From the sequence record PZ583742.1: a stretch of 64,000 nucleotides of DNA; one strand, 5' to 3'. The number at the start of each line of letters is the position of its first letter. Position 1 is the first letter of the stretch. Source of the DNA: a phage. The position numbers and the translations under genes are program-made. The notes under the pieces are model-generated. The model was given only the letters and a program-made list of their open reading frames with translations, made no database searches and was not told the origin of the DNA. Positions 20,887-27,604 of this stretch are shown here, in pieces.

Positions 20887-21405
20887 ATGGCTCATTTTAA
20901 TGAATGTTCTCAACTGATTGCTGGTGTTGATAAAGCTCAGGGCGCTTATGATAATGCAATTTTTGAAGGCACTGACCCACTGCAAGTTATGCTTGATATG
21001 CAGAAATCATTGCAGGTTCGTCTGGCTAAAGAAAAACCAGAATATAACGAACATCCTGATAACCTGGCGACTGCTGGTGAAGTTGTTACCTGGCTCCGCA
21101 ACCAGAAAGATTATATTGATGATGAATTCCGTGAACTGATTACTGCATTAGGTGGCATGTCCAATGGCGAGAAAGCTGCCTCGGCCGTATGGAAACCATG
21201 GAAAGCACAACATGGCGAAATGCAGCAAACCCTGATTAATGATTTATCTCCTGAAGACCAGCTCGAAATTAAATTTGAGATGATTGATATCCTGCACTTT
21301 GTCCTGAACATGTTCCACGGTCTTGGACTGACTGCAGAAGAAATCTTTAAATTGTATTATCTGAAAAATGCCGAAAACTTTGCTCGTCAAGACCGAGGTT
21401 ATTAA
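20887..21405 (+). CDS. 56: dCTP pyrophosphatase gp56 (all-alpha NTP-PPase)
   Basis: MAHFNEC...DPLQVMLDMQ...FKLYYLKNAENFARQDRGY close to T4 gp56; start at 20887 after AAGGA. Confidence 0.85.
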   Translation: MAHFNECSQLIAGVDKAQGAYDNAIFEGTDPLQVMLDMQKSLQVRLAKEKPEYNEHPDNLATAGEVVTWLRNQKDYIDDEFRELITALGGMSNGEKAASAVWKPWKAQHGEMQQTLINDLSPEDQLEIKFEMIDILHFVLNMFHGLGLTAEEIFKLYYLKNAENFARQDRGY

Positions 21406-21686
21406 TGGCTCGATTAAATAAACGTCAGCTTAAGAAAGCTCGCAAGAAATATATTAACGATATAATTGAAAATGTTAATACCGAAATCTTCGTAGAACTC
21501 TTATCTAATCAACTAAAACATTTATCTAAACATGAAATTGATACGAATACTGAAAATGCTAAAAATGTAATTGAAACTCATAATGCTTTTGCTAATGCAA
21601 CAGCAGAATGGATGGCGAATCCTACTGCTGAAAATCTAGCTAAAATGACTGAAGCCAATAAAGCAGTTCAAGCCATCAAATTGTAA
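21405..21686 (+). CDS. hypothetical protein (93 aa)
   Basis: ATGG overlap with gp56 stop; basic N-terminus. Confidence 0.4.
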   Translation: MARLNKRQLKKARKKYINDIIENVNTEIFVELLSNQLKHLSKHEIDTNTENAKNVIETHNAFANATAEWMANPTAENLAKMTEANKAVQAIKL

Positions 21687-21727: not shown

Positions 21728-21961
21728 ATGGGTGGTTTCGTTAATATCAAAACCTTCACGCATCCAGCTGGTGAAGGTAAAGAAGTTAAAGGTGTTGAAG
21801 TATCTGTTCCGTTTGAAATCTATTCGAACGAGCACCGTATTGCTAATGCACACTATCAGACTTTTCCTTCCGAAAAGGCCGCTTATGTCACCGTAGCGTC
21901 TAGTGCAGCTGATTGGCGAACTAAGAACGCGGCGATGTTTACGCCTACCCCAGTAGTTTAA
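21728..21961 (+). CDS. soc: small outer capsid protein Soc
   Basis: 77 aa; VNIKTF...AHYQTFPSEKAAY matches T4 Soc; AGGAG SD. Confidence 0.85.
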   Translation: MGGFVNIKTFTHPAGEGKEVKGVEVSVPFEIYSNEHRIANAHYQTFPSEKAAYVTVASSAADWRTKNAAMFTPTPVV

Positions 21962-21989: not shown

Positions 21990-22012
21990 GCTTTTAATAG
22001 AAGCGGTATAAT
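21989..22012 (+). promoter_or_regulatory. MotA-box middle promoter candidate
   Basis: TGCTTTT 21989-21995 and TATAAT 22007-22012. Confidence 0.4.
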
Positions 22013-22037
22013 TATTTCAATTACAGAGGAGAATACT

Positions 22038-22235
22038 ATGTTAAACCGTTGGATTAAACCGAACAAAGTTTTAGATGAAGTTATTGCTCATGATGTCCAT
22101 TTTAAGTATGGATTGGGTGTGTTTGATGAGGTTATCGTACATTCATTCATGATGCATGACGATGACTCTTTAGAATTCAATATTGAAATCCGTTGTGATG
22201 ATGGTAAAGTTGAATTTAAACGAGGTTTCCTATGA
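22038..22235 (+). CDS. hypothetical protein (65 aa)
   Basis: ATG with GAGGAG upstream. Confidence 0.4.
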   Translation: MLNRWIKPNKVLDEVIAHDVHFKYGLGVFDEVIVHSFMMHDDDSLEFNIEIRCDDGKVEFKRGFL

Positions 22236-22570
22236 TTAGTTGGCTCAAGAATTTATTCAAGACTAAACCGGGTGAAGGTGTGGTTCCTGTTAGCCTACCA
22301 GATGTTAAACTAAGAGAATATGTTTACATGGGTGATGGTATGATGGAAGAAGTTCGTCGACGACCAGAAAAAGCCGGTAATGTCGGACCAGGCGCATTAC
22401 CATTGAATTCGAAACAGTTAAAAGAGCATCTGGATTCAAGACGTTCTACAAGCCATGTCGATATGACTCCGATTGTAGTCGCTGCTGCCGTCAGTTCGTG
22501 GACTGGTGATTCGTCTTATTCCTCCTATGATTCAGGAAGCTGCGATTCGTCTTCCAGCTCGTGTGATTAA
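22232..22570 (+). CDS. hypothetical protein (112 aa) with Ser/Cys-rich tail
   Basis: N-terminus MISWLKNLF; C-terminal SSYSSYDSGSCDSSSSSCD. Confidence 0.4.
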   Translation: MISWLKNLFKTKPGEGVVPVSLPDVKLREYVYMGDGMMEEVRRRPEKAGNVGPGALPLNSKQLKEHLDSRRSTSHVDMTPIVVAAAVSSWTGDSSYSSYDSGSCDSSSSSCD

Positions 22571-22765
22571 ATGAGAATTACAAGTTGGCTTAAAGATTGG
22601 TTGGTTACCCCAGGGATTGATGATTCCTGGGTGGCCAGAGCCGAGGAAGAAATGCAGCGCGAAGCTGAAGAATGGGCTGCTACAGGGCTTAAAGCCATGC
22701 AGGAAAAGAAGACCGAACGAGCTGCGCTTAAACTGCTGCGTGATATCTACGGGGATAAATCATGA
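22571..22765 (+). CDS. hypothetical protein (64 aa)
   Basis: N-terminus [11 protein letters not shown] paralogous to preceding ORF. Confidence 0.4.
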
Positions 22766-22911
22766 CACAAGAAGAAGCCGAACGCCAGGCAAAAGAAGCA
22801 CTGGATTTGCTTTTGAAAATTGGCAGTAAAATGATGGAAGAAAATGAAAAGTACATCAAGGAAAATAAAGTTCCTGATGGTCCATTAGTTGGTAAGAGGA
22901 AATCATTATGA
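22762..22911 (+). CDS. hypothetical small protein (49 aa)
   Basis: ATGA overlaps on both sides; below ORF-track cutoff. Confidence 0.3.
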
Positions 22912-23390
22912 AAGTATACGAATTAGAATTCTATGTCCGTGATTCGGCTGGGCAAACACGACCTTACTATGCAACAGCCTGTCTTATCTTTGCATATAAT
23001 GGCATGGATTCGGTTACTGAGTTGGAAACAAAATTAATGAACCTGACGATGCCAGAAAACGTTATGCTGAAGGTATTTCATAGAAAAAACGTTAATGTGG
23101 CTGAAGGGTGTCCATTTACTGTTTCCGAAGCTCTGCATATCAAAGGCTATCGCCACCCGGACCTTTATGGCGAAGATACCATTTTCTATAAAGATAGAGA
23201 TAAAATGGCCACTGAACGTCTTCAAGGTCGCACATATCTGATTTCCACTACCGACGACCTTGCTGAAGTTGAACGTCAGATTTGGAAGCACTTTGATATC
23301 GGCTTGCGCTTTACTTTAACAGAAGAAGCTATTCAAGATACTAAAATGCGTGCTCGTATGTATGGTTACGGTCCTATCGGTGGCTACTAA
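22908..23390 (+). CDS. hypothetical protein (160 aa), Mrh-like by position and size only
   Basis: Lies between soc and the ADP-ribosyltransferase pair as T4 mrh does. Confidence 0.35.
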
Positions 23391-23569
23391 TGGATTTATT
23401 TGAACTTTTTGAAGAGCCTAAAGCTCCTACGGAAGCCCGTGTGGACCTAGTTGACGAACTTGATGCGATTATACAGAAGCATGGTTTTAGTCTCCCAATA
23501 GAAGTTCTGCGCGACCTGGCCTCATATTACGACGACCCACCTCCATGGGCACCATGGGTGAAACGATGA
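23390..23569 (+). CDS. hypothetical acidic protein (59 aa)
   Basis: Translationally coupled small ORF. Confidence 0.3.
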   Translation: MDLFELFEEPKAPTEARVDLVDELDAIIQKHGFSLPIEVLRDLASYYDDPPPWAPWVKR

Positions 23570-23799
23570 ACTGGTTAACAAATATTCCCACATCGGCGCT
23601 GGATATCGACCGTAAACAGGCTCATAAGGAAATTGAGCAACAAAAAATTAATCGCTTACAAAGGCTTAAGACTGAATCCGAGACAATTAAAGTCAAACGC
23701 CCGACAGAATCGAAAAGTTCTTACTCATCATATCAATCTCCGATTGGCATGGCCGTAGACATTGCAGTCTTTGGCGTCCCACTTGGAGTATTTAAGTAG
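23566..23799 (+). CDS. hypothetical protein (77 aa) with hydrophobic C-terminus
   Basis: ATGA overlap; C-terminal IGMAVDIAVFGVPLGVF. Confidence 0.35.
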   Translation: MNWLTNIPTSALDIDRKQAHKEIEQQKINRLQRLKTESETIKVKRPTESKSSYSSYQSPIGMAVDIAVFGVPLGVFK

Positions 23800-23855
23800 T
23801 TTACTTACTCCCCTCCTAATGACATAATGGCCTTTCTTACAACAGAGAGGCCATT

Positions 23856-24416
23856 ATGAACATCATCAAATCTGATACCGAACCCAACCAGTTAAAATTT
23901 AGTGAAATGGAGATAGCTTCATTATTTGAGTGTCGCACATCAAAGGTTGATAAGACCTTGCATTCAAACGTTAACTCAATCATCAAGTCAAGGTTATCTG
24001 TACCTGATACAGTCTTGTATCGTGGGGTTACCCAGCAAGAGATTGATTTGTTAGATGAAGCAAAAGAATCAATGCAACCTTTTGAATTTGGAAGGATAAC
24101 CTCCTTTACAGAAGACTATGGTATTGCCAGGGATTTTGCTGCAATGGAATATGTGTCAAGGACTATCATCAGATTGAATCATACAAAAGCTTTTTGTTAC
24201 CATGATGCGATGCGCAAAATCGCGCTTGACGTTCCACTGGAATTCTTCAATACTGCTTCTGGTTCCGAACAGGCAGCAACGTTAAGACGTGAAGAATACA
24301 TGGACATGATTGATTCTGAGCTTGAATGGTTTGTTCCAGTTGACCAGAAATTCGTGGTGGTTGATGCTGGATTTGTTGGTGATTATTATGTTCTTGACTG
24401 TGTACAAGAGCAATAA
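23856..24416 (+). CDS. ADP-ribosyltransferase (R-S-EXE type; ModB-like by position)
   Basis: LYRG Arg, SFT motif and ELE in SELEWFVPV; 186 aa. Confidence 0.55.
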   Translation: MNIIKSDTEPNQLKFSEMEIASLFECRTSKVDKTLHSNVNSIIKSRLSVPDTVLYRGVTQQEIDLLDEAKESMQPFEFGRITSFTEDYGIARDFAAMEYVSRTIIRLNHTKAFCYHDAMRKIALDVPLEFFNTASGSEQAATLRREEYMDMIDSELEWFVPVDQKFVVVDAGFVGDYYVLDCVQEQ

Positions 24417-24431
24417 GACACGTTAAGATGT

Positions 24432-24463
24432 TCCTATCAACTACTGATGAGGATAATAAAATG
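24432..24463 (+). repeat. conserved 5' leader cassette, copy 2 of 3
   Basis: See 15381-15413. Confidence 0.8.
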
Positions 24464-25075
24464 CTGTACACAAGTCACCAATTAGCAGAGTACATCAATG
24501 CAGTTAAATGTGAATATTTTCGTGAAAATACCCAGATTGAAATTGATGAAATTTACTCTGAGTTGGAACAGAGTACACTCTGGCAGTGTATGGAAAATAA
24601 GCCAGACACTATCCAGGAAACTTTGAACAAAATTATTCGTAAGAATTTGACTTCTGCTGTGCCTGGTAAGTTATATCGCGGGATTTCTAAGAAAACTTTG
24701 GCATATCTTGAAACCGTAGGATGTGTTGGTGCTACGATTGAGTTTGACCGTGTAATGAGTTTCTCCAAAGATTTCAGTGTTGCGCGTAACTTTGCTTCCT
24801 TTAGCTTCTATGGAACCAAAAATATTTTCTGTATTAATGATGCACCATTCGCATTTGATTATCAGGAAGCGATTTTTAAAATGATTTGTGCGGCACCTCC
24901 TGAAGAGTTCAACGGACTATATCCTGAAATAACTCGTTCTTCAAACTTGCAATTAGTAAATGATGAAGATGAGATGATGTTCCCTGCGGGAACTACGCTA
25001 CGCGTGGACTCTATTGAGAGCATTTATAGATGGGAAGACTATAAATTATGGAATCTTTCTGTTCTTTCTTACTGA
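24461..25075 (+). CDS. ADP-ribosyltransferase (R-S-EXE type; ModA-like by position)
   Basis: LYRG, SFS motif and EDE in DEDEMMFPAG; start at 24461 after the leader (ORF-track start 24428 lies inside the leader). Confidence 0.55.
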   Translation: MLYTSHQLAEYINAVKCEYFRENTQIEIDEIYSELEQSTLWQCMENKPDTIQETLNKIIRKNLTSAVPGKLYRGISKKTLAYLETVGCVGATIEFDRVMSFSKDFSVARNFASFSFYGTKNIFCINDAPFAFDYQEAIFKMICAAPPEEFNGLYPEITRSSNLQLVNDEDEMMFPAGTTLRVDSIESIYRWEDYKLWNLSVLSY

Positions 25076-25157
25076 AGTATTCTGGGTTAACAAAAGGCCA
25101 AAAACCTTAGAACCATTATACACAGTAAAAATAAAAGCGTTAAAGGTGAAAAAGTAG

Positions 25158-25185
25158 TGTACATAAAAGATGAATAGTGTATAAT
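25158..25185 (+). promoter_or_regulatory. early sigma70 promoter
   Basis: TGTACA, 16-nt spacer, TATAAT; TCATACTGAGTT leader. Confidence 0.55.
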
Positions 25186-25231
25186 GATTTCATACTGAGT
25201 TTTCAATCGTCCGTAAGATGAGAAAAATATC

Positions 25232-25978
25232 ATGACTTTATCAAAAACCAAAACGCTGAAAGTTAAACGTCGTCTGGAACACACTCAAGCTTCCGCTAAA
25301 CGTCGCGGTAAAGACTTTAACCTGGATTTTAATTATCTGGTTAACATTCTTGACCAAAAAGTTTGTGCTTATTCTGGTGAAGCATTTAACAACTCTATTG
25401 AAGGTGAGAAGTTATCATTAGAGCGTTTTAACAATGATATTGGTTATATCAAGGGTAATGTTATTCCTGTTAAAAAGAAATACAATACCATGCGTTCTGA
25501 TTGGTCCCTGGATGAGCTTAAACAACGTCGCGATGATGTTGCTGTAAAAATTGCTCGCCCGTCCGTCAAGAAGATTGAAAAGTTAAATCTGACAGCAGAG
25601 AAATGGGAACAGATTAAAAAGTCGTATACCCATATTAAGAACATCCAACACAAACGTGATAATCGCGTTAAGCATTATGCTCAAATGAGTAAATCAGAGC
25701 AGTCCAAAGAAAACCAATTAAAAATGATTGCTCTGAAGGCTCGCATTGATGGTTCCCGTGTTGCAGAAGGTCATGAGCTTACTAAATTGAATGTCCTGCT
25801 CAAAGGTAATGACTGGAAGGTTACCAAGAAATTAACTAATGCTGAAACGCTTTTTGATTGCTATGATAAAATCATTCAAGGTCTTGAGCGTTTTGAGAAG
25901 ATTGGTTTTATTGGTAAATTAAAACTGAAACGTGGTCTACCTTTGAACGCGTCAATTTTTAAACTGATTAGAGGTTAA
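25232..25978 (+). CDS. hypothetical basic protein (248 aa), Srd-like by position and size only
   Basis: Lies between the transferase pair and dda as T4 srd does. Confidence 0.3.
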   Translation: MTLSKTKTLKVKRRLEHTQASAKRRGKDFNLDFNYLVNILDQKVCAYSGEAFNNSIEGEKLSLERFNNDIGYIKGNVIPVKKKYNTMRSDWSLDELKQRRDDVAVKIARPSVKKIEKLNLTAEKWEQIKKSYTHIKNIQHKRDNRVKHYAQMSKSEQSKENQLKMIALKARIDGSRVAEGHELTKLNVLLKGNDWKVTKKLTNAETLFDCYDKIIQGLERFEKIGFIGKLKLKRGLPLNASIFKLIRG

Positions 25979-25982
25979 TGTG

Positions 25983-26279
25983 ATGTACTACGCATATGTG
26001 CTGGTTCACAAAGATAAAGATGGTTTTGAACGCCCATTGGAATACAATGGAAAGGTTACCTTATACACCACAAAAGCGGGTGCAGAATATGAACTTGCCA
26101 ACTATTCATATACCACAAACCGATATTTAAGTATGGGGCGTATTGAAACCATTTACATTCCTAGGAAGTGGTGGTTTGATAAGCGTGAAACAAAAACAGT
26201 TTTTCCTACTGAAGAACACGCACGAGAATTGAAACAGGTTTTATATACTTTATATGTTAAGCGAGTAAAATTGGCATGA
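25983..26279 (+). CDS. hypothetical protein (98 aa)
   Basis: ATG after GAGG; stop overlaps dda start. Confidence 0.4.
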   Translation: MYYAYVLVHKDKDGFERPLEYNGKVTLYTTKAGAEYELANYSYTTNRYLSMGRIETIYIPRKWWFDKRETKTVFPTEEHARELKQVLYTLYVKRVKLA

Positions 26280-27604
26280 TTAAATTTGAAGACTTGAACA
26301 CAGGACAAAAAGAAGCTTTTGATTATATCACCGAAGCTATTCAACGACGTTCAGGGGAATGTATTACTCTGAATGGTCCAGCTGGTACAGGTAAAACTAC
26401 TCTGACAAAATTTGTCATTGACCATCTGGTGCGTAATGGAGTTATGGGAATTGTGCTTGCCGCACCAACTCACCAGGCAAAAAAAGTTCTATCTAAATTG
26501 TCTGGTCAAACGGCGAATACAATCCATAGTATTCTGAAGATTAACCCGACCACATATGAAGACCAAAACGTTTTTGAACAGCGCGAAATGCCTGACATGT
26601 CAAAATGTAATGTTCTGGTTTGTGATGAAGCAAGTATGTATGACGGGTCTCTGTTTAAGATTATTCTTAACTCTGTTCCTGAATGGTGTACTATTCTTGG
26701 GATTGGTGATATGCACCAGCTGCAGCCAGTTGACCCAGGAAGCACACAACAAAAGATAAGCCCATTCTTTACGCATCCTAAGTTCAAACAGATTCATCTG
26801 ACTGAGGTTATGCGAAGCAATGCTCCTATCATTGAAGTAGCGACAGAAATTCGTAACGGGGGTTGGTTCCGCGACTGTATGTATGATGGTCATGGTGTAC
26901 AGGGTTTCACCTCACAAACCGCTTTAAAGGATTTCATGATAAACTATTTTGGTATTGTAAAAGATGCTGATATGTTGATGGAAAACAGGATGTATGCGTA
27001 CACGAATAAATCAGTTGAAAAACTGAACAATATTATTCGTCGCAAGCTCTATGAAACGGATAAAGCATTTTTACCGTATGAAGTCCTAGTTATGCAAGAG
27101 CCACACATGAAAGAGCTGGAATTTGAAGGCAAGAAATTCAGCGAAACCATTTTTAATAATGGTCAGTTGGTTCGCATCAAGGATTGCAAATACACTTCCA
27201 CAATTCTCCGTTGTAAAGGTGAATCACACCAGTTAGTGATTAATTACTGGGACCTGGAAGTTGAGTCAATTGATGAAGATGAAGAATATCAGGTTGACCG
27301 CATCAAAGTTTTACCTGAAGACCAGCAACCAAAATTCCAGGCATATCTGGCTAAAGTTGCTGACACATACAAACAGATGAAAGCCGCTGGTAAACGTCCA
27401 GAGTGGAAAGACTTCTGGAAAGCCCGCCGGACCTTCTTGAAAGTTCGTGCTCTTCCGGTTAGTACAATCCACAAGGCCCAGGGCGTTTCAGTAGACAAGG
27501 CATTCATCTATACTCCATGCATCCATATGGCCGAAGCTTCATTAGCGAGCCAGTTGGCTTATGTAGGAATCACACGAGCGAGGTACGACGCATATTATGT
27601 ATAA
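26276..27604 (+). CDS. dda: Dda DNA helicase (SF1B)
   Basis: Walker A GPAGTGKTT, Walker B VLVCDEASM; 442 aa. Confidence 0.95.
   Translation: MIKFEDLNTGQKEAFDYITEAIQRRSGECITLNGPAGTGKTTLTKFVIDHLVRNGVMGIVLAAPTHQAKKVLSKLSGQTANTIHSILKINPTTYEDQNVFEQREMPDMSKCNVLVCDEASMYDGSLFKIILNSVPEWCTILGIGDMHQLQPVDPGSTQQKISPFFTHPKFKQIHLTEVMRSNAPIIEVATEIRNGGWFRDCMYDGHGVQGFTSQTALKDFMINYFGIVKDADMLMENRMYAYTNKSVEKLNNIIRRKLYETDKAFLPYEVLVMQEPHMKELEFEGKKFSETIFNNGQLVRIKDCKYTSTILRCKGESHQLVINYWDLEVESIDEDEEYQVDRIKVLPEDQQPKFQAYLAKVADTYKQMKAAGKRPEWKDFWKARRTFLKVRALPVSTIHKAQGVSVDKAFIYTPCIHMAEASLASQLAYVGITRARYDAYYV

Follow-up and report, generated by a model that had tools for sequence, protein, structure and literature searches.

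Two neighbouring open reading frames (ORFs) of a T4-like phage raise the question of what kind of enzyme they encode and how far the names and tasks of their T4 counterparts can be carried over to them. They lie on the plus strand of the 64,000-nt stretch of DNA from record PZ583742.1 that was analysed here (the window), at positions 23856–24416 (gene 1, 186 aa, in the position of T4 modB) and 24461–25075 (gene 2, 204 aa, in the position of modA), and both are of the ADP-ribosyltransferase (ART) type. An earlier description of this DNA, made from the letters alone (the sequence-only reading), took them for tandem genes of ModA/ModB/Alt-type enzymes. Our analysis leads to a narrower answer: the pair very probably encodes two small mono-ADP-ribosyltransferases, expressed early and specific for arginine, that belong to the T4 ModA/ModB family. 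The gene pair itself is already known, as near-identical published genomes annotate both members as modB/modA; with the genes named there and the family studied in T4 for decades, the value of the finding for genome annotation is small.

Direct reading of the codons located in both proteins the three signatures that the sequence-only reading had named. In gene 1, the Arg of LYRG is R56 (codon 24021–24023), the S-motif is S83-F-T85 (24102–24110) and the E-x-E is E155-L-E157 (24318–24326). In gene 2, the corresponding elements, likewise on the plus strand, are R73 (24677–24679), S100-F-S102 (24758–24766) and E169-D-E171 (24965–24973); in a longer, 215-aa reading of this gene, which begins at ATG 24428, they would be numbered R84, S111-F-S113 and E180-D-E182. 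Both ORFs proposed earlier exist, but the start assumed for the second, ATG 24428, appears to be 11 codons too long. Its true start is most likely ATG 24461, since GAGG stands 8 nt upstream of this codon, homologues of gene 2 are 204 aa long in eight of the 12 cases found and within 185–204 aa in all 12, M12 of the 215-aa reading aligns with Met1 of both T4 ModA and T4 ModB, and the match to the family hidden Markov model (HMM) begins exactly at the residue encoded by this ATG. Public records vary on this point: that of phage SP18 annotates the long 215-aa start, and that of phage P479 the 204-aa one. The two genes are thus spaced by 44 nt (stop 24416, start 24461), and their products had correctly been called diverged, with 34% identity across 122 aa.

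Assignment to the family is carried by similarity along the whole proteins. The PHROG family phrog_832, "RNA polymerase ADP-ribosylase", is hit by gene 1 with E 2.8e-28 and by gene 2 with E 2.4e-42. BLASTP comparison with T4 ModB yields 33% identity for gene 1 (80 bits, 1e-23) and 36% for gene 2 (84 bits, 7e-25); T4 ModA is matched by gene 1 with 49 bits (4e-12) and by gene 2 with 38% identity, 73 bits and 9e-21. In an alignment with the T4 ModA and ModB sequences drawn from NC_000866, a check that had been proposed together with the original assignment, the Arg, Ser and E-x-E residues fall into invariant columns: gene 1 R56 corresponds to gene 2 R73, ModB R73 and ModA R72; S83 to S100, ModB S99 and ModA S96; and E155/E157 to E169/E171, ModB E171/E173 and ModA E163/E165 (gene 2 in 204-aa numbering here and below). 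Searched with a profile, 1.84 billion representative proteins yielded 114 relatives at E ≤ 1e-3 (42 at E ≤ 1e-10), and conservation was counted in an alignment of 63 small members. The Arg and the Gly next to it are present in all 63, the first Ser of the S-motif in 62, as is the Ser/Thr two positions on, and each Glu of E-x-E in 61, the exceptions including at least one truncated sequence. Specific to these phage proteins is, in addition, a helical region at the N terminus that carries the invariant signature E..L..C...K. The R, S and E motifs are short and would be weak by themselves; backed by the whole-protein matches and the invariant columns, they are not chance occurrences.

The choice of SFT/SFS as the "S" motif deserves a comment. 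Toxin ARTs carry an STS motif on a β-strand that is followed by a helix. The SFT/SFS motif, kept in 62 of 63 relatives as stated above, is likewise predicted to form a β-strand preceding a helix, which bears out the earlier choice. A review table lists Ser109 as the "S" residue of T4 ModA (PMC8120803); the Ser109 column is conserved in just 27 of 63 members and sits in the helix after the S-motif strand. Conservation and the structural models together suggest that the S-x-S/T strand motif is the better equivalent of the toxin STS. As for the other two elements, published T4 mutants are reported to be inactive: R73A in ModB, made together with G74A, abolishes ADP-ribosylation and RNAylation (PMC10468400), and E165A in ModA abolishes ADP-ribosylation (PMC11404850). 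The T4 residue assignments used here follow these secondary sources.

The predicted fold points in the same direction. AlphaFold2 (AF2) models built on a 19-sequence alignment reach a predicted local distance difference test (pLDDT) of 88.0 and a predicted template modelling score (pTM) of 0.81 for gene 1, where only residues 1–11 are of low confidence, and 90.7 and 0.85 for gene 2. In the gene 2 model, LYRG lies on strand 70–74, MSFS on strand 99–102 followed by helix 105–112, and E-D-E at the beginning of strand 171–174; the layout of motifs on strands and helix is equivalent in the gene 1 model. Foldseek searches against the PDB returned ADP-ribosyltransferases as all 50 matches listed for each model, with probability 1.00, E-values of 5e-7 to 1e-4 and template modelling (TM) scores of 0.4–0.6. 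The matches named are HopU1, XopAI, Certhrax, VahC, C3bot, iota toxin Ia, CDTa, VIP2, SpvB, ExoS/T and Tre1; those listed for gene 1 include HopU1, iota Ia, C3, CDTa, VIP2 and Tre1, and the top ones for gene 2 are HopU1, XopAI, Certhrax, C3 and Tre1. Among the predicted phage structures in BFVD, the gene 2 model matches ModB and ModA proteins at TM 0.86–0.88, for example 0.87 to a "ModB" of Serratia phage CBH8 and 0.86 to a "ModA" of Shigella phage Sf22. Both proteins are accordingly modelled with the split β-sheet ART core of the R-S-E (ARTC, cholera-toxin-like) class.

The bacterial toxins and effectors of that class, such as HopU1 (3u0j), C3bot (2c89), iota Ia (4h03), CDTa, VIP2, Certhrax and Tre1 (6drh), match the predicted fold, with R, S-x-S and E-x-E following one another as in the phage proteins and located on corresponding elements of secondary structure. 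They differ from the phage proteins in several respects: sequence identity is just 8–19% at the TM-scores given above, the N-terminal helical region with E..L..C...K is particular to the phage family, and the toxins are secreted, whereas the window proteins would be cytoplasmic early phage proteins. Searching each protein with phmmer against PDB sequences gave chance matches only (a light-harvesting protein, truncated haemoglobins), the family profile found there only a 34-residue E-x-E stretch of XopAI (E 0.4), and neither search revealed a ModA/ModB relative among PDB sequences.

Tandem paralogues frequently include a degenerate copy, and one of the two proteins might therefore be a catalytically dead or repurposed form, such as a binding protein or decoy. 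Gene 1 would be the natural candidate, being the shortest member, missing about 20 N-terminal residues of T4 ModB, having its first 11 residues predicted as disordered and belonging to an isolated, fast-evolving clade. Both copies, however, retain all invariant positions, including R, G, S-x-S/T and both Glu residues, the same is true of every invariant family position in the relatives of the gene 1 subfamily (P0016 and P0017, 62–97% identity), and both models are confidently folded. We consider a dead paralogue very unlikely. Sequence similarity, gene order, conservation of the triad and predicted fold concur, and the identification of both ORFs as R-S-EXE ADP-ribosyltransferase genes of the ModA/ModB type is supported.

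Several observations weigh against this identification or against drawing too much from it. Identity to the characterised T4 enzymes is just 27–38%. Scans of both proteins against NCBIfam and a copy of Pfam-A that apparently lacks PF26816, the precomputed label on all homologues found, gave no significant match, only sub-threshold noise (DRAT, E 0.02; Sld5; XopAI, E 0.16). TM-scores to the solved toxins are moderate, and the placement of the triad in three dimensions rests on secondary-structure position together with sequence alignment. With respect to the T4 relatives, a neighbour-joining tree of 37 family members places gene 1 with P0016/P0017, gene 2 with P0001–P0012, T4 ModB and T4 ModA in four separate, well-supported clades joined by deep nodes of less than 65% bootstrap; gene 2 scores better to T4 ModB than to T4 ModA (84 versus 73 bits); and in an all-against-all comparison of first- and second-position mod genes from several genera, no partner of gene 1 outside its own genus exceeded 81 bits. 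Because of the unsupported joining of the four clades, the ModB score of gene 2 and the isolation of gene 1, an argument for function by orthology is weak.

Enzymes of the R-S-EXE type hold nicotinamide adenine dinucleotide (NAD+) by the Arg of the first core strand (here LYRG) and by the S-x-S/T strand. Once nicotinamide has left, the oxocarbenium-like transition state is stabilised by the second Glu of E-x-E, and the first Glu directs transfer to an arginine guanidinium of a host protein. By this scheme, both window proteins would bind NAD+ through their Arg and S-x-S strand and transfer ADP-ribose to arginines of host proteins, with the second Glu being catalytic. Both are presumably made early and, by analogy with T4, one or both may act on proteins of host transcription or translation shortly after infection.

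An acceptor other than protein arginine, namely DNA or RNA bases as for Scabin/pierisin or DarT, would change this picture. The PDB matches listed for the two models are toxins and effectors, which we take to act on proteins, and T4 ModA and ModB, the nearest relatives that have been characterised, act on arginines of proteins. The R-S-E fold does include the nucleic-acid modifiers SCO5461 and Scabin (PMC8120803), and T4 ModB is described as using NAD-capped RNA as donor (PMC10468400); yet the E-x-E form of the ARTT motif, present in both proteins, is given as characteristic of arginine-specific enzymes (PMC8120803, PMC10468400). A non-protein acceptor thus seems most improbable, and transfer to protein arginine is the reading that we retain.

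The sequence-only reading had put Alt beside ModA and ModB. The ModA/ModB part stands by whole-protein similarity, but not the Alt part: hhalign of T4 Alt against the family gave a non-significant match (E 0.29) over 22 columns around the E-x-E only. T4 Alt does have an E-x-E followed by a P-x-G stretch in common with the window proteins and falls into the same phrog_832 (profile length 1480), which the window proteins match at about positions 1240–1440. It is three times larger, however (NP_049811, 682 aa), is annotated as carried in the capsid and delivered along with the DNA, and is encoded at a distant T4 locus (123.5–125.5 kb). An Alt-type enzyme would be a virion-packaged protein of about 680 aa with a C-terminal ART domain and recognisable similarity to Alt; the window proteins, at 186 and 204 aa and with a match confined to those 22 columns, do not answer to this description. 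The term "Alt-type" would hold only at the level of the common R-S-E superfamily. Applied to six-frame translations of the window, the family HMM detected neither a third ART ORF nor an Alt-like one.

T4 ModB (NP_049636, 207 aa) and ModA (NP_049635, 200 aa) are of the same size class as the window proteins, have the same R / S-x-S(T) / E-x-E columns and predicted fold, and are encoded in the same tandem order between modA.2 and srd. Differences are nevertheless apparent: the T4 genes overlap by 4 nt whereas those of the window are 44 nt apart, the middle residue of E-x-E is Q in the T4 enzymes and L (gene 1) or D (gene 2) in the window, gene 1 has the shortened N terminus noted above, and each window protein belongs to a clade of its own, apart from both T4 proteins. 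Two questions of identity follow for the pair, one concerning the names and the other the targets.

T4 ModA is reported to modify Arg265 of the RNA polymerase alpha subunit, and T4 ModB to modify S1, EF-Tu and trigger factor and to attach NAD-capped RNA to proteins, a reaction termed RNAylation (PMC10468400, PMC8120803, PMC3014915). Strict orthology, as the GenBank names of SP18 (modB for the first ORF, modA for the second) imply, would make gene 1 a ModB acting on S1, L2, EF-Tu and trigger factor and performing RNAylation, and gene 2 a ModA acting on Arg265 of both alpha subunits. This is consistent with the T4-like positions of the two genes, with ModB being the best T4 match of gene 1 (80 versus 49 bits) and with the slightly higher percent identity of gene 2 to ModA (38% versus 36%). 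The bit score of gene 2, however, favours ModB, as does its best predicted-structure match, named "modB"; its homologue is called "modB" in UniRef and modA in SP18; and the four clades described above remain separate, their deep nodes unsupported. T4 ModA, moreover, stands apart, scoring no more than 80 bits with any of the other Mod proteins compared, and gene 2 groups with the second-position gene of Mosigvirus (232 bits) and with that of a two-gene T4-like IMG/VR contig, L023 (358 bits). The gene 1 subfamily, at 90% identity or more, comprises only 33 phage records. Neither window gene is the reciprocal closest relative of a T4 gene or shares a supported clade with T4 ModA or ModB.

The number of mod genes also varies. 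Between modA.2 and srd there is one in Jiaodavirus and Gelderlandvirus, and two in Tequatrovirus, Mosigvirus and Gaprivervirus. The single gene occupies 748–1437 of the locus from Klebsiella phage JD18 (L003, Jiaodavirus) and 811–1443 of that from Salmonella phage STP4-a (L004, Gelderlandvirus), and the pair 844–2091 of the Mosigvirus locus (L005). As JD18 and STP4-a manage with one mod gene, the division of labour is not fixed across the subfamily, which speaks against strict orthology as well. These single genes are also "central" in similarity, with 138–165 bits to members of several clades.

On balance, we regard strict orthology as a serious candidate that is nonetheless more doubtful than probable. 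The names modB and modA rest on position (synteny) only, and with orthology not demonstrable and the names inconsistent, T4 targets cannot be assigned to gene 1 or gene 2. The earlier suggestion that the targets of the two proteins may differ is reasonable; which of them does the ModA and which the ModB job is not legible in the sequence. It is possible, though we judge it unlikely, that the pair is functionally non-equivalent to T4 ModB/ModA, or that the promoter within a hairpin upstream of gene 1 (described below) works as a translational gate. The gene 1 subfamily may have another host target or prefer another donor, such as NAD-capped RNA; modification of RNA polymerase alpha may fall to the gene 2 clade or to neither of the two proteins. 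ModB-type enzymes are topical, as T4 ModB attaches RNA chains to host proteins and ModA does not (PMC10468400). The pair is of some, if modest, comparative use in this respect: with 27–38% identity to the T4 enzymes and an intact triad, pairs of this kind provide natural variants for mapping the residues that set target and donor specificity.

The region directly upstream of gene 1 carries a putative early-type sigma-70 promoter (23799–23828, plus strand), composed of GTTTACT (−35), a 17-nt spacer with TG, and CATAAT (−10). A consensus scan matched 23800–23828 at nine of 12 positions with TG, in a scan that as a whole was not enriched over shuffles. The pattern GTTTAC-17-TAT(G/A)AT also precedes the first mod gene of T4, JD18, STP4-a and Mosigvirus, and promoter activity of the window site is inferred from such sequence likeness.

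A 12-bp hairpin (23826–23855, plus strand) stands directly 5′ of the gene 1 AUG. Its 5′ arm begins inside the −10 hexamer, and its 3′ arm consists of the Shine-Dalgarno (SD) sequence GAGAGG and a spacer that ends immediately ahead of the AUG. The RNA is predicted to fold with −17.5 kcal/mol (z −4.96; none of 200 shuffles was as stable), and with −23.5 kcal/mol in an extended form (z −7). The same layout of promoter and hairpin, with different stem sequences, recurs in T4 (upstream of modB, as it is upstream of gene 1 here), JD18, STP4-a, Mosigvirus and further IMG/VR contigs; in the comparison loci it occupies 4617–4690 of L002 (minus strand), 678–762 of L003, 753–825 of L004 and 789–858 of L005. 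Across 13 distinct sequences from five Tevenvirinae genera, 94% of the cells of the consensus helix are paired, versus 30–53% when the partners are slid by 1–3 columns. Five of the 12 pairs show compensatory changes, and no shuffle reached the observed covariation score. The second mod gene has no such hairpin upstream.

This arrangement suggests that gene 1 may be translated only from promoter-proximal transcripts. RNA initiated some 7 nt downstream of the −10 element would be without most of the 5′ arm, and for this reason it is the read-through transcripts, with SD and AUG buried in the stem, that would be silent. Such a gate may confine production of a toxic enzyme to a short early burst; if so, the promoter-hairpin may account for how phages keep in check an enzyme whose over-expression is reported as lethal.

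Elements of both kinds have been described in related phages. Translational hairpins with the same logic are listed for T4 e, soc, 49 and I-TevI, and the list in PMC3014915 does not contain modB; there, as in the window, the 3′ arm is the SD-to-AUG segment. In the PeSL (promoter-early stem-loop) cassettes of phages RB49 and phi1, a sigma-70-type early promoter is followed by a stable stem-loop, which overlaps the −10 element or comes just after it, and then by SD and ATG; the stems have been read as terminators or attenuators and also as sites of recombination (Arbiol et al. 2010, PMC2839356). Counterparts of all these parts lie upstream of gene 1, so that the element is a variant of the kind already described and is not new in type; what it does is predicted here from its layout. 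Typical PeSL stems pair a G-tract with a C-tract and precede the SD, whereas in the window the 3′ arm is the SD-to-AUG segment itself. No U-tract follows the window hairpin, and the roles proposed in the PeSL paper are those of a terminator and recombination site, not of a translational gate.

The surroundings of the pair agree with the claim that it lies between soc and dda as in T4. The soc gene (PF16855, E 3e-19) is at 21728–21961 and dda (Dda SH3 domain, E 2e-33) at 26276–27604; between them are, among others, a Mrh-family gene (22908–23390), srd (25232–25978) and the Y01A/dda.1 gene (25980–26279). The window order, soc ... modA.3, modA.2, gene 1, gene 2, srd, dda.1, dda, matches that of T4 (soc, mrh.2, mrh.1, mrh, srh, modA.4, modA.3, modA.2, modB, modA, srd, dda.1, dda) and that of SP18. 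An 84-aa ORF of unknown function (23545–23799; phrog_14077, E 4e-47) is inserted between modA.2 and gene 1 and has no counterpart among the T4 proteins of the region.

By megablast of 23500–25400, matched at full length, the closest relatives are phages vB_EcoM_RZ (98.9% nucleotide identity), DK-13 (98.1%) and SP18 (97.4%), and by sequence the window belongs, as does SP18, to Gaprivervirus (Tevenvirinae). In phage P479, the counterparts of the two proteins are annotated as "ADP-ribosylase" and show 99.5% and 99% identity to them. The modB/modA genes of the Gaprivervirus members Shigella phage SP18 and Escherichia phages vB_EcoM_RZ, P479 and DK-13 share gene order and 97–99% nucleotide identity with the window pair and show essentially no difference from it beyond the annotated start of gene 2.

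No intrinsic-terminator-like sites and no Rfam matches were found in 23300–25400. A blastn hit that looked like a 137-nt inverted repeat flanking the mod genes proved to be an artefact, as the subject held SP18 and T4 in opposite orientations; since the match falls on modA.4, the apparent repeat is the homologue of that gene, and a repeat search found no inverted repeats in 22000–26500. Nor are the mod genes unusually diverged in comparison with their neighbours, their 33–38% standing against 29–83% for the latter.

At the downstream edge of the mod pair, in the 156-nt gap between gene 2 and srd, there is a putative plus-strand promoter-like site, TGTACA-16-TATAAT (25158–25185; 10 of 12 in the consensus scan). 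Further upstream, the SP18 record contains two soc genes (soca and socb) and the window one clear soc; a 93-aa ORF preceding it (21405–21686) matches phrog_5782, "virion structural protein", over its first 45 residues only. In its soc region the window thus departs from this close relative. The modA.4 homologue (22762–22911, 49 aa) shares 83% protein and about 86% DNA identity with that of T4, compared with 29–68% for its neighbours, and so high a conservation is uncommon in so short an ORF of unknown function. A direct repeat of 25 nt (22508–22568; 76% identity, 36-nt spacing) is located at the 3′ end of the mrh.1-like gene, within the part for the Ser-rich C-terminal tail of its product (...SSYSSYDSGSCDSSSSSCD).

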